Shown here: one piece after another, positions 9,745 through 30,160 of the stretch
Numbering within the stretch: position 1 is the first letter of the stretch
Layout: each line of letters starts with the position of its first letter
Assembly (NCBI GenBank): GCA_963698035.1
Contig: OY969114.1
Span: 450,001-482,000, forward strand
Origin: Candidatus Saccharimonadota bacterium
Lineage (GTDB): Archaea; Micrarchaeota; Micrarchaeia; Micrarchaeales; Micrarchaeaceae
Length of the DNA: 32,000 nt
Direction: 5' to 3'
The notes under the pieces: model-generated
Told to the model about the DNA's origin: nothing
Seen by the model: only the letters and a program-made list of their open reading frames with translations
Databases searched by the model: none
Translations under genes and position numbers: made by a program

Positions 9745-10104
9745 TCACTTCTTAATTGTCTTCAACCATGATATAAAATCCTTGTGGAGCTGGTAAATCC
9801 CGGTGTCAATCACCCTAATTTTCGCTGTGCCCCCATAGTGCTCGTCGCTAAGCTCCAGGACAGCCTTGTAGTCCTTCATCTCGGTATAATGGACCTCCAT
9901 CCAGTGTATCTTCCCCTCAATGTAGTCCTTGAGCAGGTTATCCATCATTGGCGGCGAGGCAAAGCTGAAGAGTATCCCGTTGCACCAGTAGAGCGGCATC
10001 GTCCCGTTCGGCATCACCCTCTCCCTCAGAAGGTCGTCCATCGATATCTTTGATACGTCGTGCACCACCAGCGTGTGCAACGGCTCATAGATTATCTTTA
10101 CCAT
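9745..10104 (-). CDS. Hypothetical protein (119 aa) between rpl37ae and rpoP
   Basis: ORF packed 4 nt after rpl37ae and 7 nt before rpoP. No motif recognised. It sits where a Brix/Imp4-like gene is found in other archaeal exosome superoperons, but I see no Brix signature. Confidence 0.55.
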   Translation of the reverse strand: MVKIIYEPLHTLVVHDVSKISMDDLLRERVMPNGTMPLYWCNGILFSFASPPMMDNLLKDYIEGKIHWMEVHYTEMKDYKAVLELSDEHYGGTAKIRVIDTGIYQLHKDFISWLKTIKK

Positions 10105-14922: not shown

Positions 14923-16143
14923 CTAGGCTACGGGCTCCTCCTCCTTCTGCTCCTGGACGCCGAATATCTCCTTCTCTATGACGTCGCGCGTCTTCTTTGG
15001 CGGACATAGGAGCTTGACCAGCTTCGTGTGGCCTCGTATCCCCTTCCCGGACTCGAACGCGGCTATGAGCCCCTGCATCTCCAGCTCAGAAAGGTACTTC
15101 CTGTACCACCTCTCGCTCTTCGGCTCCTTCTTCATGCTCTCAGATATGGACTTGTAGCGGTTGTAAATCTCTCCGCTGAACAGGTATGTGTCAACCCCGT
15201 CGGTCAGCTTCTTGTACGTGCCACCACTCTGCGTCAGCAGCGTTATCGAGTAGAGGACGAGCTTCTGATGCTCCGGCAGGGTCGCTATCAGGTCGTATAC
15301 AGCATCGTTCTCGGCTAGCTTCGCGGCGTCCTGCGCCTCCTTCATCGTTATGGAGGAGAGCCCCCTGTCGTCGCCCAGCTCGCCCGCCTTAGAAAGCACC
15401 TTTAGCGAGAATCTTGCGTCACCGCCCTCCTTCGCAGCCTGTGCAGCTATGTAGTGCAGCACATCGTCACTTACGACTCCCTTCTTGAAGCCCACCCCCG
15501 CCCTGTCCTTCAGTATCGCATAGAGCTCCGTCGCGTAATACGGCGAGAAGACGAGCTCGGTCTCGTAGAGCGTCGATAGGCTCCTCGGGTCGAGCTCATC
15601 CTTGAATGATACCTTGTTCGAGATGCCGATCATCGACACCCCTCCCGCTTTTATATCGCTGTTTATCCTTGTGAGCGTGTATATAAGGTCGTCAAGGTCC
15701 TTCACCATGTCTATCTCGTCCAGTACCGCAACGAATATCTTGCTATCCTCCTCTATCCAGTTCCTGAGCCGCTCATACAGGTCAACCGCCCCATACCCTC
15801 TCTTTGCATACGTGGGCAGGTGGTCCCCTATTATCCTCGCCAGCACCTTGAACCTGGAGTTGTATATCCTGCAGTTTATGTAAGAGATACGCGTCTTCGT
15901 GTTCGGAATGTTTCTTATCTCCTCTATCACGTAGTTTACGCAGGATGTCTTTCCGGCCCCCGTCTTCCCGTATATAAAGAGGTTCCTGCCGCGCTCGCCC
16001 TTCAGCGACGGGGCGATGGCGCGCTCTATGTTGTTTATCTCCTTTTCCCTGAAGACCAGTTTTTTCGGGGTATAGTGCGGAGAGAGCACCTCCCTTACCT
16101 GGAATATCTTCGAATCGCCAAGAAGGTCGTTTAACGTCTGCAT
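14923..16143 (-). CDS. cdc6: Orc1/Cdc6 replication initiator (AAA+)
   Basis: Walker A is GKTGAGKTS and Walker B is VAVLDEID. The N-terminal LSPHYTPKKLVFREKEI and a C-terminal winged-helix-like end are also present. The likely start is the ATG at 16143 (MQTLNDLL); the ORF is open to 16158. Confidence 0.93.
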   Translation of the reverse strand: MQTLNDLLGDSKIFQVREVLSPHYTPKKLVFREKEINNIERAIAPSLKGERGRNLFIYGKTGAGKTSCVNYVIEEIRNIPNTKTRISYINCRIYNSRFKVLARIIGDHLPTYAKRGYGAVDLYERLRNWIEEDSKIFVAVLDEIDMVKDLDDLIYTLTRINSDIKAGGVSMIGISNKVSFKDELDPRSLSTLYETELVFSPYYATELYAILKDRAGVGFKKGVVSDDVLHYIAAQAAKEGGDARFSLKVLSKAGELGDDRGLSSITMKEAQDAAKLAENDAVYDLIATLPEHQKLVLYSITLLTQSGGTYKKLTDGVDTYLFSGEIYNRYKSISESMKKEPKSERWYRKYLSELEMQGLIAAFESGKGIRGHTKLVKLLCPPKKTRDVIEKEIFGVQEQKEEEPVA

Positions 16144-16237
16144 TATAGCCCCGCACAAATTAGCGGTTCACTTTCTATTTTGGGTTTAAAAATACTTCCC
16201 TTGTTGTGCAGAGATAAAACTACACCAAAAAGTAAAA

Positions 16238-16555
16238 TCAGATGAGGTGTCTCTCGCGCAGCTTGGTCACGTCAAGGGCGCTATACCTCCAGACTATGTT
16301 CGCCCGCTGATCGCTTTGGACCACCCACGGCTTGATTATTACCACGTCGTTCTCCTTGATCCAGAACCTCCTTCTGAACCTTCCCGGTATGGAGCAGAGC
16401 CGCTGCTTGCCGTCAGCGCAGTCGACCAAGAACTTTGTGGCGCCCGCTATCCTGACAACACTGCCGAGTATCTCCCCCTCCGATTGGTTGGGGAGTTTCA
16501 GCCTGTACTCGATAGGCGCGCCGCGCCTCTCGTCAGTCGTCGGTTTTCTTGGCAT
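16238..16555 (-). CDS. eif1a: Translation initiation factor aIF-1A
   Basis: GEILGSVVRIAGATKFLVDCADGKQRLCSIPGRFRRRFWIKENDVVIIKPW is the typical S1-like aIF-1A core. Confidence 0.92.
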   Translation of the reverse strand: MPRKPTTDERRGAPIEYRLKLPNQSEGEILGSVVRIAGATKFLVDCADGKQRLCSIPGRFRRRFWIKENDVVIIKPWVVQSDQRANIVWRYSALDVTKLRERHLI

Positions 16556-16562
16556 ATGACCA

Positions 16563-16979
16563 CTAGTAATTCTTCACTCCGTATCTTGAGCCGCACGCCT
16601 CGCACACAAGGTAGAACATGCCGCGCCCCGCCCTCTCGAGCTTCGTATCGGGCTTGTGGCATTCCCTGCATATCACGTACACCTCGAAGTAGCGCTGCAT
16701 GCGCTTGTCGAGGTCCGCAGGCTGGAATTTTCCGCTTATCACAAGGCGCTGTTCCTCCACATTGACCGGAACCCCAAGCTCCTTGCTCACGTATCGCGCC
16801 ATCTCCTTCGGGTCCCTCCTTGCTTTGTCTGCGAATGCGTTGAGGTTCCTCAATATCGTCTTGCTGCCCTGCACGAGCGAATCCACCTTGGGTATAACAA
16901 AATCGGAGCTCTCGCTGGCGATGACATGCGCATTAGCGAAAGCGCGGTCAAGCAGTTTCATGTATTCTTCGTCGCTCAA
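16563..16979 (-). CDS. eif2b: Translation initiation factor aIF-2 subunit beta
   Basis: YMKLLDRAF, TILRNLNAFADKARRDPKEMARYVSKELG and the C-terminal Zn ribbon CRECHKPDT...CEACGS fit aIF-2 beta. Confidence 0.92.
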   Translation of the reverse strand: MSDEEYMKLLDRAFANAHVIASESSDFVIPKVDSLVQGSKTILRNLNAFADKARRDPKEMARYVSKELGVPVNVEEQRLVISGKFQPADLDKRMQRYFEVYVICRECHKPDTKLERAGRGMFYLVCEACGSRYGVKNY

Positions 16980-18627: not shown

Positions 18628-19899
18628 TCAGTACCAGCCCCGCGCCTTCATCGCCTTGGCAACCCTGTCGACCGCGATTATGTAGGCGGCCATCCTCGGG
18701 TTTATCTTCTGGCCATTCGCTGCATAGGATTTCTGCATTGCAATGGTGTCGTTGAATGATTTTGTTATCTTCTTGTCCAGCTTCGCGTTGAAGAGGTCGA
18801 TGTCCCAGTAATCACCAGTTATATTCTGCACCCATTCATAGTACGATCCTATCACGCCTCCGGAATTGACCAGGAAGTCTGGCAGGTCTAGTATCCCTTT
18901 CTCGAAGAGTATACCTGTCGCCTCCGGCGTCACCGGACCATTCGCCAGCTCCAACAGGAGCTTGCACTTAATTTTGTCGGCGTTGTCCGCCCTTATCTGA
19001 TTCTCTATCGCAGCCGGTATGAGGATGTCGACCTTCAGCTCGAGGAGCTCCTCGTTTGACACCTTCTCGGCCTTCTTGCCCTTGTAGCCCAGCACGCTGC
19101 CTGTCCTTTTCTTCGCCTCGTCCAGCTTTGCAAGGTCCAGGCCGTCGGGGTCATAGATTCCGCCCTCGGAGTCGCTTATCGCCACAACCTTCGCCCCCAG
19201 CATCTCCTTCGATAATGTATAAGCGTACCTTCCCGCATTGCCAAAGCCCTGCACAGCGATTGTTGCCTTCTTGGGGTTAAGCCTGAGCGCCTTCGCCGCC
19301 TCCCTCATCACAAACATGCTGCCCCTGGCGGTCGAGTCCATCCTACCTTCGCTACCCCAGATCTCGACGGGCTTTCCTGTTATCACGCCGAACTGGCTCT
19401 TCCTCACAATGTTTATATACTCATCGAGCATCCAAGCCATTATCTGGGGGGTTGTGTATACATCTGGCGCAGGTATGTCGACCTCTGGGCCGATGTCGGT
19501 GCCAAGCGCCCTCACATATGCCCTGGATAGCGCTTCTATGTCTTTATCATTCATCTTCTTCGTGTCGCATATGATACCCCCCTTGCCTCCACCGAAGGGT
19601 ATGTCTGCTAGCGAGCACTTCCATGTCATCCACGCAGAAAGCGCCTTTACAGTATCGAGACTCTCCTGCGGATGGAACCTTATGCCCCCCTTTGCTGGGC
19701 CCCTAGCATCATTATACCTGACGCGGAAGCCAGTGAAGAGCTGCGTTTTGCCATTGCTCATCTTTACAGGTATGTTCATGACAAGGACGCGCTTCGGCTC
19801 CCTGAGTATAACATGTGCCTGCCTGTCCAGCTTCATTATCTCCGCCGCCTCATCGAGCTGCTCTTGCGCAATCTTGAATGGATTGAGTTCCTCTGCCAC
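18628..19899 (-). CDS. gdhA: Glutamate dehydrogenase
   Basis: GPAKGGIRFHP, PFGGGKGG and the Rossmann GFGNAG are the Glu/Leu/Phe/Val dehydrogenase signatures. 423 aa. Confidence 0.95.
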   Translation of the reverse strand: MAEELNPFKIAQEQLDEAAEIMKLDRQAHVILREPKRVLVMNIPVKMSNGKTQLFTGFRVRYNDARGPAKGGIRFHPQESLDTVKALSAWMTWKCSLADIPFGGGKGGIICDTKKMNDKDIEALSRAYVRALGTDIGPEVDIPAPDVYTTPQIMAWMLDEYINIVRKSQFGVITGKPVEIWGSEGRMDSTARGSMFVMREAAKALRLNPKKATIAVQGFGNAGRYAYTLSKEMLGAKVVAISDSEGGIYDPDGLDLAKLDEAKKRTGSVLGYKGKKAEKVSNEELLELKVDILIPAAIENQIRADNADKIKCKLLLELANGPVTPEATGILFEKGILDLPDFLVNSGGVIGSYYEWVQNITGDYWDIDLFNAKLDKKITKSFNDTIAMQKSYAANGQKINPRMAAYIIAVDRVAKAMKARGWY

Positions 19900-20003
19900 T
19901 TATTCACCCATTGAAATCAGATGCAGAAGATATTATTAAGCTTTTATTCTGCTGCAGAACGCAAGTAAAATAATTGCTATCGCTCCGTCGGCGAAGCGGA
20001 AGG

Positions 20004-20011
20004 TTTTTATA
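20004..20011 (+). promoter_or_regulatory. TATA box of array gene P1
   Basis: TTTTTATA lies about 36 nt before the ATG at 20044. GGTGA (Shine-Dalgarno-like) lies 6-7 nt before the ATG. Confidence 0.5.
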
Positions 20012-20043
20012 CCTGTTCTCTGTTTGATGTAAAGGTGAATTTA

Positions 20044-20583
20044 ATGTTCTCCAAAAGAGGCAACTCCAAAGCCCAGTCAGCAATGGAATATCTGATGACA
20101 TATGGATGGGCAATACTGATTATATCTATCGTTCTCGCAGCGCTCTTCGCTCTCGGAGTCTTCAGCAGCAGCTCCTTCGTAGGCACAACATGCATCGCGG
20201 CATCTGGATACGAATGTGCAACCCCACTACTGCACTCCGGATTGTTCACCGCTACAATAGGCCAAGCCACCGGAACTTCATGGGCAACGACCAATGTAGT
20301 ATTCATTAGTGGAGGCGGTGTACCAAGTTCGCTAGCTAACACCGTGTTTACGGGATCCGTATGTGCTCAAACAGTATCGGGTGGTCTCACAAGCGGGGCG
20401 TCCTTCACATTCACAGTCAATACCATGGCCTCGGGTACAGGTGCGCTATCATGCACCGGAGGTACATTCTTATCTACAATTGGATCGTCTTACACTGGGT
20501 CCCTATGGGCGGAGTATACGTCATCCGGTGTATCGGGTTACCAGTGGTCACAAATTGCTACAGTGACGCTGAAGGCCACATAA
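20044..20583 (+). CDS. Class III signal peptide / type IV pilin-like protein P1
   Basis: MFSKRGNSKA then QSAMEYLMTYGWAILIISIVLAALFALGVF. Conserved Cys pair TTCIAASGYEC, variable middle, conserved end YTGSLWAEYTSSGVSGYQWSQIATVTLKAT. The ATG at 20044 is preferred over the track's GTG at 20035. Confidence 0.8.
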   Translation: MFSKRGNSKAQSAMEYLMTYGWAILIISIVLAALFALGVFSSSSFVGTTCIAASGYECATPLLHSGLFTATIGQATGTSWATTNVVFISGGGVPSSLANTVFTGSVCAQTVSGGLTSGASFTFTVNTMASGTGALSCTGGTFLSTIGSSYTGSLWAEYTSSGVSGYQWSQIATVTLKAT

Positions 20584-20595
20584 ACGGCCTTCCCC

Positions 20596-20609
20596 TTTCT
20601 TTTTATTTT
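20596..20609 (+). terminator. Oligo-T tract after P1 (archaeal-type terminator candidate)
   Basis: TTTCTTTTTATTTT begins 13 nt after the stop codon. The same tract follows every array gene. Confidence 0.4.
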
Positions 20610-20627
20610 AGGAGTAGCGGAGCTGTT

Positions 20628-20721
20628 CTTGCTCCTTTTTCTGTATGCTTCCCTATAATTGTCTATGACCTCAACCTTGTTCGCAAACGGCTCCCCCACC
20701 AGAAGGCTTTTATACCTGTTC
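20628..20721 (-). pseudogene. dph2-derived relic 1 (~94 nt, homologous to dph2 positions 23084-23177)
   Basis: By-eye alignment is about 85% identical with one 1-nt indel. The minus-strand translation LVGEPFANKVEVIDNYREAYRKRS compares with Dph2 LVVEPFANKVEFIDDYREVYRGRS. Confidence 0.65.
20708..20714 (+). promoter_or_regulatory. TATA box of array gene P2 (inside the right end of relic 1)
   Basis: CTTTTATACC lies about 36 nt before the ATG at 20747. The aligned dph2 sequence reads GTTTTGTAGT, which has no TATA. Confidence 0.5.
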
Positions 20722-20746
20722 TCTGTTTGATGTAAAGGTGAATTTG

Positions 20747-21277
20747 ATGTTCTCCAAAAGAGGCAACTCCAAAGCCCAGTCAGCAATGGAATATCTGATG
20801 ACATATGGATGGGCAATACTGATCATATCTATCGTTCTCGCAGCGCTCTTCGCTCTCGGAGTCTTCAGCAGCAGCTCCTTCGTAGGCACAACATGCATCG
20901 CGGCATCTGGATACGAATGTGCAACCCCACTACTGCACATCGGAACATTCACCGCTACAATAGGCCAAGCCACCGGAACTTCATGGACATCGGCCAATAT
21001 AGTACTTGTTACAGGAGGTGCTGTACCAAGTGCCATACCTACTACTGTTTCAGGGAGTTGCTTTGTTAATGCAAATACCCTCACAAGCGGGGCGTCCTTC
21101 ACATTCACAGCCAATAGCATGAGCTTGGGCGGCTCATCCACCTCATGTGGCGGAGGTGCGTTCTCACCTACAATCGGAACGTCTTACACCGGGGCCCTAT
21201 GGGCGGCGTATACGTCATCCGGTGTATCGGGAACCCAGTGGTCAGAGATCGCTACAGTGACGCTGAAGGCCACATAA
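20747..21277 (+). CDS. Class III signal peptide / type IV pilin-like protein P2
   Basis: The first ~57 residues are identical to P1. The middle differs (…HIGTFTATIGQATGTSWTSANIVLVTGGAVPSAIPTTVSGSCFVNANT…). The end is conserved (YTGALWAAYTSSGVSGTQWSEIATVTLKAT). Confidence 0.8.
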   Translation: MFSKRGNSKAQSAMEYLMTYGWAILIISIVLAALFALGVFSSSSFVGTTCIAASGYECATPLLHIGTFTATIGQATGTSWTSANIVLVTGGAVPSAIPTTVSGSCFVNANTLTSGASFTFTANSMSLGGSSTSCGGGAFSPTIGTSYTGALWAAYTSSGVSGTQWSEIATVTLKAT

Positions 21278-21289
21278 ACGGCCTTCCCC

Positions 21290-21303
21290 TTTCTTTTTAT
21301 TTT
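21290..21303 (+). terminator. Oligo-T tract after P2
   Basis: Same TTTCTTTTTATTTT tract as after P1. Confidence 0.4.
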
Positions 21304-21321
21304 AGGAGTAGCGGAGCTGTT

Positions 21322-21415
21322 CTTGCTCCTTTTTCTGTATGCTTCCCTATAATTGTCTATGACCTCAACCTTGTTCGCAAACGGCTCCCCCACCAGAAGG
21401 CTTTTATACCTGTTC
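21322..21415 (-). pseudogene. dph2-derived relic 2
   Basis: Same sequence as relic 1, read directly. Confidence 0.65.
21402..21408 (+). promoter_or_regulatory. TATA box of array gene P3
   Basis: CTTTTATACC lies about 36 nt before the ATG at 21441. Confidence 0.5.
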
Positions 21416-21440
21416 TCTGTTTGATGTAAAGGTGAATTTG

Positions 21441-21989
21441 ATGTTCTCCAAAAGAGGCAACTCCAAAGCCCAGTCAGCAATGGAATATCTGATGACATAT
21501 GGATGGGCAATACTGATTATATCTATCGTTCTCGCAGCGCTCTTCGCTCTCGGAGTCTTCAGCAGCAGCTCCTTCGTAGGCACAACATGCATCGCGGCAT
21601 CTGGATACGAATGTGCAACCCCACTACTGCACTCCGGATTGTTCACCGCTACAATAGGCCAAGCCACCGGAACTTCATGGGCAACGACCAATGTAGTATT
21701 CATTAGTGGAGGCGGTGTACCAAGTGCGTTAACTGCCGCCATGTTTACAGGGGTCGGGACCACATGCGCTCAAACAGTATCAGGCGGTCTCACAAGCGGG
21801 GCGTCCTTCACATTCTCAGTCAATAGCGTAGCCTCGGGTACAGGTACGCCAACATGTCCTGCCGCAAGCGCGTTAGGATCTGCAATTGGAAATTCTTACA
21901 CTGGGTCCCTATGGGCGGAGTATACGTCATCCGGTGTATCGGGTTTCCAGTGGTCACAGATCGCTACAGTGACGCTGAAGTCCACATAA
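21441..21989 (+). CDS. Class III signal peptide / type IV pilin-like protein P3
   Basis: Same N-terminal ~95 aa as P1. The middle differs (ALTAAMFTGVGTTCAQ…GTGTPTCPAASALGSAIGNS). The end is conserved (…FQWSQIATVTLKST). Confidence 0.8.
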   Translation: MFSKRGNSKAQSAMEYLMTYGWAILIISIVLAALFALGVFSSSSFVGTTCIAASGYECATPLLHSGLFTATIGQATGTSWATTNVVFISGGGVPSALTAAMFTGVGTTCAQTVSGGLTSGASFTFSVNSVASGTGTPTCPAASALGSAIGNSYTGSLWAEYTSSGVSGFQWSQIATVTLKST

Positions 21990-22001
21990 ACGGCCTTCCC
22001 C

Positions 22002-22015
22002 TTTCTTTTTATTTT
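22002..22015 (+). terminator. Oligo-T tract after P3
   Basis: Same TTTCTTTTTATTTT tract as after P1. Confidence 0.4.
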
Positions 22016-22033
22016 AGGAGTAGCGGAGCTGTT

Positions 22034-22127
22034 CTTGCTCCTTTTTCTGTATGCTTCCCTATAATTGTCTATGACCTCAACCTTGTTCGCAAACGGCTCC
22101 CCCACCAGAAGGCTTTTATACCTGTTC
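22034..22127 (-). pseudogene. dph2-derived relic 3
   Basis: Same sequence as relics 1 and 2, read directly. Confidence 0.65.
22114..22120 (+). promoter_or_regulatory. TATA box of array gene P4
   Basis: CTTTTATACC lies about 36 nt before the ATG at 22153. Confidence 0.5.
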
Positions 22128-22152
22128 TCTGTTTGATGTAAAGGTGAATTTG

Positions 22153-22701
22153 ATGTTCTCCAAAAGAGGCAACTCCAAAGCCCAGTCAGCAATGGAATAT
22201 CTGATGACATATGGATGGGCAATACTGATTATATCTATCGTTCTCGCAGCGCTCTTCGCTCTCGGAGTCTTCAGCAGCAGCTCCTTCGTAGGCACAACAT
22301 GCATCGCGGCATCTGGATACGAATGTGCAACCCCACTACTGCACTCCGGATTGTTCACCGCTACAATAGGCCAAGCCACCGGAACTTCATGGGCAACGAC
22401 CAATGTAGTATTCATTAGTGGAGGCGGTGTACCAAGTGCGTTAACTGCCGCCATGTTTACAGGGGTCGGGACCACATGCGCTCAAACAGTATCAGGCGGT
22501 CTCACAAGCGGGGCGTCCTTCACATTCTCAGTCAATAGCGTAGCCTCGGGTACAGGTACGCCAACATGTCCTGCCGCAAGCGCGTTAGGATCTGCAATTG
22601 GAAATTCTTACACTGGGTCCCTATGGGCGGAGTATACGTCATCCGGTGTATCGGGTTTCCAGTGGTCACAGATCGCTACAGTGACGCTGAAGTCCACATA
22701 A
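22153..22701 (+). CDS. Class III signal peptide / type IV pilin-like protein P4 (identical to P3)
   Basis: The ORF-track translation is identical to P3, and the nucleotide sequence looks identical on inspection. Confidence 0.8.
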   Translation: MFSKRGNSKAQSAMEYLMTYGWAILIISIVLAALFALGVFSSSSFVGTTCIAASGYECATPLLHSGLFTATIGQATGTSWATTNVVFISGGGVPSALTAAMFTGVGTTCAQTVSGGLTSGASFTFSVNSVASGTGTPTCPAASALGSAIGNSYTGSLWAEYTSSGVSGFQWSQIATVTLKST

Positions 22702-22713
22702 ACGGCCTTCCCC

Positions 22714-22727
22714 TTTCTTTTTATTTT
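22714..22727 (+). terminator. Oligo-T tract after P4
   Basis: Same tract as after P1. The shared 3' flank ends at 22743, 17 nt before the dph2 stop codon. Confidence 0.4.
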
Positions 22728-22759
22728 AGGAGTAGCGGAGCTGATCTTTATATTGCCGA

Positions 22760-23689
22760 CTAGTTCCTTGCCCTCAGCTCTGCGAGTTCCTTCTTCATCT
22801 GCAGGGCCTCCATCAGTTCGTTCGCGCTTAGGAGCGGCTTTCCGATGCGGTCGTAGTCATCGATGGCAATCCTGGGACATGCGGTGTTGACAAAAGCATC
22901 AAACTCCCTCATATTCTGCAATGATGTGAAATCAAAGGTGTTCGCCACGAGTATCTCCGCTTTCAGGCCGCGCCTCTCAATCTTCTCTTTTATTATCTTC
23001 GCCAGCGCCATGTTGTGCTGGCCGTTCTTTGTGCTGAGCATTACGCCAAAACTCTTCGCCTCAAGGGTCGCTATCACCTTACCCCTGCTCCTTCCCCTGT
23101 ATACTTCTCTATAATCGTCTATAAACTCAACCTTGTTCGCAAACGGCTCCACCACCAGGAAGGGTTTTGTAGTGTTCAGCAGCGCGCCCAGCGGATGGAA
23201 CATCCCTCCGCCAAAGTAGACGAATGCGTCCACATCCCTGTCTATGGTCGCTGCGCTGCCGATGTCGCAGCCCAATATCTGCCCGCGCTTCTTTGCGAAT
23301 CCGTAGGGCTTCCCGACCACTACCTTCTTGCCGTGCTTTTCGTAGAAGCCCACCAGCTCATCAAGCTGGTGTATGTGCTGTATTGTTGTAACAATCCCGA
23401 TTGTAGTGTATCCCGAAAGCGGCTCGAGCGACCTGTCGAGTATCTCCAGGGGCGCGTCTATGTTGTATTCAATATACTCGACATCAAAGTCTACCTTCTG
23501 GAACTCTGCATGGCCAAAGTGAATTATCCTGTCGGCATGGATGCTCTTCGCTTCATCGAGTGCAAGGTCGCACGCTCCAAAGGTCGGAGATGCAGATATG
23601 AAGACCTCGTTGCCTTTTGCCTCCAGTGCCTTCGCATACTCCAAGGCGTGCTGCTTTAGCCCTTCAGGAAACTGGAGAAGTAATCGCAT
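22760..23689 (-). CDS. dph2: Diphthamide biosynthesis protein Dph2 (2-(3-amino-3-carboxypropyl)histidine synthase)
   Basis: MRLLLQFPEGLKQHALEYAKALEAKGNEVFISASPTFGACDL, with later GCDIGSA and VNTACPRIA cysteine motifs, is typical of archaeal Dph2. It starts 8 nt after rpl10e. Confidence 0.88.
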   Translation of the reverse strand: MRLLLQFPEGLKQHALEYAKALEAKGNEVFISASPTFGACDLALDEAKSIHADRIIHFGHAEFQKVDFDVEYIEYNIDAPLEILDRSLEPLSGYTTIGIVTTIQHIHQLDELVGFYEKHGKKVVVGKPYGFAKKRGQILGCDIGSAATIDRDVDAFVYFGGGMFHPLGALLNTTKPFLVVEPFANKVEFIDDYREVYRGRSRGKVIATLEAKSFGVMLSTKNGQHNMALAKIIKEKIERRGLKAEILVANTFDFTSLQNMREFDAFVNTACPRIAIDDYDRIGKPLLSANELMEALQMKKELAELRARN

Positions 23690-30075: not shown

Positions 30076-30160
30076 TAAACCAGATTAACATCAAGATAAA
30101 TGTATAAAAGGGTTTTGTATCTCCTGTTCATTAGAAAATTGGACTCCCAACTCTTACTGT

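Follow-up and report, generated by a model that had tools for sequence, protein, structure and literature searches.

A fragment of the neighbouring dph2 gene in the junctions of a tandem pilin-like gene array in a Micrarchaeota archaeon: a probable scar of the founding duplication

In bacteria, tandem amplifications have been documented whose junctions show microhomology or no homology (PMC11721125). In the join-point scars of RecA-independent tandem duplications, which arise by microhomology-mediated illegitimate recombination or template switching, the distal end of the duplicated DNA is linked to its beginning where the two share a short, imperfect similarity, and this new junction is reiterated in each further unit via homologous unequal exchange. 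Both traits recur at the locus described here, which lies in a 32,000-nucleotide (nt) stretch of contig OY969114.1 (assembly GCA_963698035.1, positions 450,001 to 482,000 of the forward strand), in the following called the window. The Dph2, GDH, FtsZ and Rad50 genes of this window are collinear with contigs of Micrarchaeota metagenome-assembled genomes, which identifies the source as a Micrarchaeota (DPANN) archaeon. Four tandem pilin-like genes on the plus strand sit between gdh and dph2, and each of the three spacers between them contains a short piece of dph2. In our view, this fragment is probably a scar without function, left by the duplication from which the pilin array arose.

The spacers, counted from stop codon to ATG (20584-20746, 21278-21440 and 21990-22152), are 163 nt long each and mutually identical. 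Comparing the spacer with the rest of the window by BLASTN, we found that 20630-20714 matches dph2 at 23086-23171 in plus/plus orientation, with 74 of 86 positions identical (86%), one 1-nt gap and E = 9e-24. This was the sole significant match in the window, the next best having an E-value of 0.15. A core of 72 nt is derived unambiguously from dph2 23087-23158 (Dph2 codons about 178-201) and is present on the minus strand at 20631..20702, with identical second and third copies at 21325..21396 and 22037..22108. The next 12 nt after the core (20703-20714) form a zone common to dph2 and the pilin promoter. The same junction is found between all units, and the sequences upstream of unit 1 and downstream of unit 4 are unique. 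The fragment is antisense to the pilin genes and retains an open 24-codon Dph2-like frame, with the minus-strand translation LVGEPFANKVEVIDNYREAYRKRS compared to LVVEPFANKVEFIDDYREVYRGRS in Dph2; spanning only about 24 codons, it is not a gene. Because the matching segment is located inside the Diphthamide_syn domain and is conserved in all orthologues, the spacer is derived from dph2 and not the reverse.

The intact dph2 gene (22760-23689, minus strand) is convergent with the array and encodes a protein of 309 amino acids with a full-length domain (Pfam PF01866, Diphthamide_syn, E = 6.6e-68, profile positions 1-295 of 302). Besides the source of the fragment, it holds a promoter-like site at 23160-23171, and orthologues are present in more than 100 Micrarchaeota loci. 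A preliminary description of this DNA, made from the letters alone, had reported about 85% identity between spacers and dph2 over 94 nt in the same orientation. The significance-tested alignment demonstrates homology and orientation; in an ungapped comparison over all 94 nt, the identity is 75/94 (80%). The further claims that the relic occurs in every array junction, that it still translates to a Dph2-like peptide and that unit 1 lacks it were all borne out, the homology of unit 1 with units 2-4 starting only at 19999/20000. One statement has to be corrected: what lies 17 nt beyond the last GGAGCTG of the array (22743) is not the beginning of dph2 but its stop codon (22760) and thus its 3' end, since the gene is on the minus strand and convergent with the pilin genes.

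An Rfam search with the spacer gave no match at E <= 1 and its fold z-score was 0.23, which indicates no unusual RNA structure; a known RNA element or a structured RNA in the spacer was rejected on these grounds. Antisense open reading frames (ORFs) of 92-108 amino acids cross the dph2 fragment and the pilin 5' ends on the minus strand (20538-20816, 21184-21510 and 21896-22222). One of these fragment-crossing ORFs is called as a gene in an assembly of the ENA, and the equivalent at unit 1 (19904-20113) is present in the protein database as P0122. Such calls are probably spurious annotations. A protein search with the fragment-crossing ORF matched only the unit 1 antisense ORF and led to two further contigs, L108 and L109, which are discussed below.

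Both parental sequences are preserved, un-joined, in a relative without the duplication. This short-read contig, L104 (ENA ERZ27315280), carries a dph2 with 96% nt identity to that of the window and has the gene order gdh - one pilin - dph2. Its promoter reads ...GAAGCGGAAGGTTTTTATACCTATTC... (GCGGAAGGTTTTTATACC), its 3' untranslated region (UTR) ...GGAGTAGCGGAGCTGATCTTTATATCGCCGATTAG (...GGAGCTGATCTTTATATCGCCGATTAG) and its dph2 ...GGAAAGGTTTTGTAGTGTTC. The pilin UTR there continues uninterrupted into the dph2 stop codon. In the window, the 3' UTR of pilin 1 (20584..20630, plus strand) contains an oligo-T terminator-like run at 20595-20609 and ends with GGAGCTG+TTCTT at the left junction; the copies at 21278-21324 and 21990-22036 are identical, and the counterpart after unit 4 is found at 22702-22748. 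At this left junction the UTR sequence ...GGAGCTG(A/T)TCTT passes directly into GCTCC... of dph2 (23087) with an overlap of about 1 nt. According to the unit alignment, the segment 22749..23086 (minus strand) is absent from the junctions, i.e. 338 nt consisting of 11 nt of intergenic DNA and the dph2 3' end, in good agreement with the loss of about 340 nt of dph2 3' sequence that had been described before. The second breakpoint may represent a later deletion or a second template switch in one complex event, as the sequence fits both equally well. The duplication-then-deletion model of the preliminary description is supported in its first part, a duplication running from the pilin promoter into dph2, and its two-step order is plausible.

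At the right junction, the core of the fragment is followed by the join-point zone AAGGCTTTTATA (20703..20714, plus strand; identical copies at 21397-21408 and 22109-22120), which holds the purines resembling a B recognition element (BRE) and the TATA box of pilin 2. The zone is common to the pilin promoter, AAGGTTTTTATA (20000-20011), and to dph2, AAGGGTTTTGTA (23160-23171), so that a 12-nt similarity, AAGGnTTTTnTA, at the end of the fragment is shared by the pilin 1 promoter, dph2 and the junction. Across the right junction, dph2 reads ...CACCAGGAAGGGTTTTGTAGTGTTC, the promoter of unit 1 ...GCGGAAGGTTTTTATACCTGTTC and the junction ...CACCAGAAGGCTTTTATACCTGTTC. The junction TATA (TTTATA) and the following bases (CCTGTTC...) are identical to unit 1 and near-identical (1 mismatch in CCTGTTC) to the single-pilin, fragment-free L104; at the equivalent place dph2 reads TTTGTAGTGTTC. 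Two explanations had been offered for this region. A TATA box derived from dph2 was rejected, as TTTATACC equals unit 1 and the single-copy L104, where dph2 has TTTGTAGT. The alternative, that the similarity was the microhomology at which the duplication junction formed, gains support from the shared 12 nt: AAGGNTTTTNTA occurs 7 times in the window, compared to 0.02 matches expected by chance. The parental sequences, GGAAGGTTTTTATA in the promoter and GGAAGGGTTTTGTA in dph2, are both present in relatives and therefore predate the junction. Taken together, the sequences support a join that would have formed at a pre-existing promoter-like similarity inside dph2, with the TATA box belonging to the pilin promoter.

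The promoter and short leader of pilin 1 (19999..20043, plus strand) consist of the BRE-like GGAAGG, the TATA box TTTATA at 20006-20011 and a GGTGA Shine-Dalgarno-like motif in front of the ATG at 20044, and no dph2 fragment is found upstream. As read from the sequence, this region represents the left end of the duplicated unit in its ancestral form. In all four pilin genes TTTATA is positioned at -38 from the ATG and is followed by the GGTGA ribosome-binding motif. TATA-like elements at -31 to -39 are found at other genes of the window, and homologous TATA boxes are kept at the same place in L104 and in the related locus L072. With this spacing and conservation, the BRE/TATA elements are predicted to be the promoters used by the pilin genes. 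Two further matches to AAGGnTTTTnTA are located in the window at 9772-9783 (minus strand) and 30108-30119 (plus strand), the latter upstream of Lon and on the opposite strand; AAGGATTTTATA may be a BRE/TATA consensus typical of this genome.

A comparison with related genomes, which the preliminary description had proposed as a check, was performed with the dph2 loci of Micrarchaeaceae (L001-L107). Throughout this family the genes keep the order dph2 - convergent pilin(s) - gdh, with one to five pilin copies. Convergent pilin genes directly follow dph2 in 74 of the 86 related loci with enough flanking sequence, and 25 of these 74 have 2-5 copies. A single pilin gene beside dph2 was found in each of the nearest relatives with context (L104, L072, L105, L106 and L107). 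The arrays of relatives are much more diverged (typically 70-88% nt identity) and have no conserved spacers. Dph2-like DNA outside dph2 was detected at none of the 104 related loci, and none of the 33 spacers in the arrays of relatives resembled any flanking DNA. Among the loci compared, the dph2 fragment in the pilin array is specific to the source lineage. An exact 24-mer scan of metagenome contigs for a less decayed or longer intermediate found nothing, and exact look-ups of pilin 3 were likewise without a hit. While dph2 is 96% identical at the nt level between the window and L104 (and likewise between the window and the related locus L071), the adjacent pilins of window and L104 share only about 60% of their amino acids. 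This fast divergence of the pilin beside a conserved dph2 suggests that the pilin locus exchanges alleles or is under strong diversifying selection.

Between the fragment and dph2, 10 differences were counted over codons 4-27, with 3-4 changes per codon position and five amino-acid changes (a small sample), whereas differences between the functional dph2 genes of the window and L071 over the same codons are mostly at third positions. The even spread of the substitutions over the codon positions indicates that the fragment evolves as non-coding DNA under neutral decay. It has diverged from dph2 by about 14%, with about 8 fragment-specific changes in 85 nt. Of the sites that differ between the resident dph2 and those of L071 and L104, the fragment shares three with each side, which places the founding event at roughly the time when the resident and the L071/L104 lineages split.

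Within the array, a stretch of 763 nt is perfectly the same in units 3 and 4 (21270-22031 = 21982-22743), and units 1 and 3 show only 2 differences in the first 330 nt before they diverge. Synonymous divergence (dS) is 0-0.02 in codons 1-64 and breaks to 0.19-0.46 in the variable domain, where the ratio of non-synonymous to synonymous divergence (dN/dS) amounts to 0.74-1.0. As the three spacers are identical to each other and yet 14% diverged from dph2, they go back to one old junction that was later copied by unequal crossing-over or gene conversion, and the array looks young but was founded long ago; an independent junction event for each unit was rejected for the same reason. The earlier idea that the relics record the growth of the array is hence valid for the founding event but not for the later junctions, which are copies and not independent events.

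Based on these observations, we propose the following course of events. The ancestor would have carried a single pilin gene flanked by gdh and by a dph2 convergent with it, an arrangement that persists in close relatives. Illegitimate, homology-independent recombination or a replication template switch would then have connected the housekeeping gene dph2 (at about 23158-23171) with the beginning of the pilin promoter (at about 20000). The join would fall on the pre-existing 10-of-12 similarity (G)GAAGGnTTTTnTA and result in a tandem duplication with dph2 3' sequence at its junction. The proximal 338 nt would have been deleted later or skipped in the same event, so that 72 nt of dph2 remained, flanked by the pilin terminator and the following promoter, which is supplied by the pilin side with its BRE-like purines, TATA box and leader. 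Subsequently, the fragment would have decayed neutrally and the array would have grown to four units via unequal homologous crossing-over. Gene conversion would keep a block of pilin 3' end, UTR, fragment, promoter and the first 300 nt of the pilin 5' end identical, and the surface-exposed C-terminal domains would diverge. The order and number of these events, the lack of function of the fragment and the use of the promoters are what we infer.

Several points weigh against this scenario. The junction is one G short (CCAGAAGG) compared to a clean crossover within GGAAGG, and position 20708 is a C in the junction, a T in the promoter and a G in dph2, which means that the exact crossover point is not fixable. 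L104 was assembled from short reads, so that its single pilin gene could be a collapsed repeat. The three identical copies of the fragment give no within-array variation from which constraint could be read. In addition, the fragment has the AAA (Lys) codon of the L071 and L104 dph2 genes, two bases off the resident GGA, so the allele that served as source cannot simply have been the dph2 resident today. Finally, the survival of a neutral 72-nt fragment through about 9% decay is somewhat unexpected in a small DPANN genome, although hitch-hiking inside the homogenised block would explain it.

The codon shared with L071 and L104 also bears on a foreign origin, in which the array unit together with the dph2 scrap was formed in a related strain or imported from it by recombination or horizontal transfer; the fragment would then stem from the dph2 of another lineage. 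With 85.5% identity to the dph2 of L071/L104 and 86% to the resident gene, the fragment is as close to the one as to the other and has one further base in common with the former, and the pilin alleles of close relatives are sharply different where dph2 is conserved. On the other hand, the fragment shares three sites with the resident dph2 against L104, no dph2 among 107 loci matches it above 86%, and the UTR and promoter that flank the junction belong to the resident locus. The mixed pattern fits an origin near the split of the two lineages, and we regard a foreign origin as unlikely. Chance similarity, or an array or junction misassembled from repeats, is hardly conceivable. Near-identical repeats are indeed badly handled by assemblers, and short-read contigs break at array edges. 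Nevertheless, an E-value of 9e-24 combined with an open 24-codon Dph2-like frame speaks against chance, and the exact 163-nt spacer, preceded by a pilin 3' end and followed by a pilin 5' end, is found in two independent assemblies of other samples, L108 (ERZ27245846) and L109 (ERZ18629311). Contig ERZ1426827 has a matching gene geometry (known from gene positions alone), and the short-read contig L070, from the same strain, stops precisely 30 nt inside the repeat, the behaviour expected of a real repeat. Copy number and unit order still depend on how the source was assembled. The unit pairings across the spacer differ in L108 and L109 (U1-type followed by a U1/U3-type 5' end, and U3-type followed by a U2-type 5' end). 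This may reflect another unit order in those populations or path choices of the short-read assemblers, because the identical block is longer than short reads.

It is also very unlikely, in our view, that the fragment was co-opted, with the dph2 core serving as promoter context or binding site for pilins 2-4 or being transcribed by read-through into a trans-antisense RNA against dph2 mRNA. At three of the four pilin promoters the fragment directly adjoins the BRE/TATA; it is situated downstream of a pilin terminator on the strand antisense to dph2, and has persisted in a perfectly homogenised state. Its plus-strand RNA would be 86% complementary to dph2 mRNA, including a perfect stretch of 25 nt. 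Against this, an oligo-T run precedes the fragment, convergent transcription of pilin and dph2 exists already in every relative, the substitutions are even over the codon positions, and neither RNA structure nor an Rfam family was detectable in the spacer. Moreover, pilin 1 and all single-copy relatives carry the same promoter without the fragment, which argues that it is dispensable, and nothing similar is present at any other Micrarchaeota locus (0/104 loci, 0/33 spacers). We likewise give little credence to the homogenised block being a selected module, kept identical by more than passive gene conversion, that allows the symbiont to change its pilin copy number and to shuffle the variable domains. 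The dph2 core would then form an upstream promoter context by which copies 2-4 differ from copy 1, or yield a read-through antisense RNA tying dph2 to pilin expression, both of which appear quite improbable. The scar of a founding duplication thus remains the reading that we favour.

The array comprises pilin-like gene 1 (20044..20583, 179 amino acids), gene 2 (20747..21277, 176 amino acids), gene 3 (21441..21989, 182 amino acids; P0001, 100%) and gene 4 (22153..22701, 182 amino acids), all on the plus strand. Gene 4 is identical to gene 3, and gene 2 has the most divergent variable domain of the array. The proteins of 176-182 amino acids start with a short basic N-terminus and the motif KA/QSAMEYLMTYGWAILI, followed by a hydrophobic helix; in gene 1 this is a class III-like signal peptide, MFSKRGNSKA/QSAMEYL. 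The signal stretch, MFSKRGNSKA followed by QSAMEYLMTYGWAILIISIVLAALFAL, is invariant in 60 homologues. Altogether, the family includes 2301 homologues, which are all unannotated ('hypothetical'), and on the sequences retrieved it is restricted to Micrarchaeota-like archaea. No Pfam or NCBIfam model covers it despite the invariant QSAMEYLMTYGWAILI N-terminus and two invariant cysteines.

An AlphaFold (AF2) model with a predicted local distance difference test score (pLDDT) of 86 shows an N-terminal helix (residues 13-36) and a beta-sandwich. The top Foldseek match in the PDB was 8fk7_A, an archaeal type IV pilus of Pyrobaculum, with an E-value of 0.026 and a template modelling (TM) score of 0.30-0.37, which is below significance. 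A sequence profile search of the PDB returned an archaeal flagellin alone, with a non-significant E-value of 2.7, and searches against Pfam and NCBIfam gave no significant match. Archaeal type IV pilins with class III signal peptides share with the array proteins a short basic N-terminus, KA/QSAMEY with Glu at +5 and a hydrophobic helix of more than 20 residues followed by a beta-sandwich, the latter as seen in the AF2 model. In contrast to these pilins, the array proteins have no Pfam or NCBIfam match, their fold and sequence matches are sub-significant, and no curated model of a pilin or class III signal and no solved pilin matched them significantly. We use 'pilin-like' as a reasoned label, derived from the N-terminus and the predicted fold, and not as a demonstrated membership. 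Genes for a prepilin peptidase, an assembly ATPase or a platform protein were not seen among the ORFs of the window that were scanned.

The left neighbour of the array is gdh (18628-19899, minus strand). A fifth pilin-like paralogue (P0030; 17150-17704, plus strand), 55% identical to pilin 3, is located 2.3 kb upstream of the array and is separated from it by the Nudix and GDH genes. Further upstream, a Cdc6/Orc1 gene (14923-16158, minus strand) is divergent from an ORF at 16247-16765, and the intergenic region could hold a replication origin. The best match of the window Dph2 in GTDB has 76% amino-acid identity.

The locus provides a base-resolved and dated record of the birth of a surface-protein array in a DPANN archaeon. 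Pili-like structures are thought to mediate the contact of ARMAN/Micrarchaeota with their hosts (PMC5498576), which makes fast-evolving pilin arrays of one to five copies beside dph2 a plausible site of host adaptation. On the practical side, the junction sequence is a lineage marker, and pilin arrays of this type break short-read assemblies and spawn spurious antisense ORF calls.

Compared with described systems, the array is closest to the join-point scars of tandem duplications. DNA of the distal flank is present in direct orientation, the un-joined parents are found in L104, a short homology lies at the join and the junction is repeated between all units. It departs from typical scars by its second breakpoint with 338 missing nt and by a join on promoter-like sequence inside a coding gene. 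It is also old (about 9-14% decayed) and fixed in an uncultured DPANN archaeon, unlike a transient laboratory amplification. A second parallel is the concerted evolution of tandem surface-protein or pilin paralogues, in which, as here, an identical N-terminal region (signal and helix) and identical non-coding flanks are combined with a divergent, exposed C-terminal domain; for our array, gene conversion or unequal exchange is deduced from sequence patterns. Several tandem pilin variants with conserved flanks that could support recombination are also reminiscent of the pilE/pilS cassettes of Neisseria. However, the pilS cassettes are silent and promoterless, whereas all four array copies have their own promoter, identical throughout, as well as ribosome-binding site, ATG start codon and signal peptide. 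Antigenic variation of the pilE/pilS type, with silent promoterless donors and one expression locus, was rejected for this reason, and no recombination-guiding element of that type was found at the array. The mechanism of the join is a known, textbook one, of which the array is most likely a clean archaeal instance, with a fragment that has no function and a parental state that is preserved in a relative.

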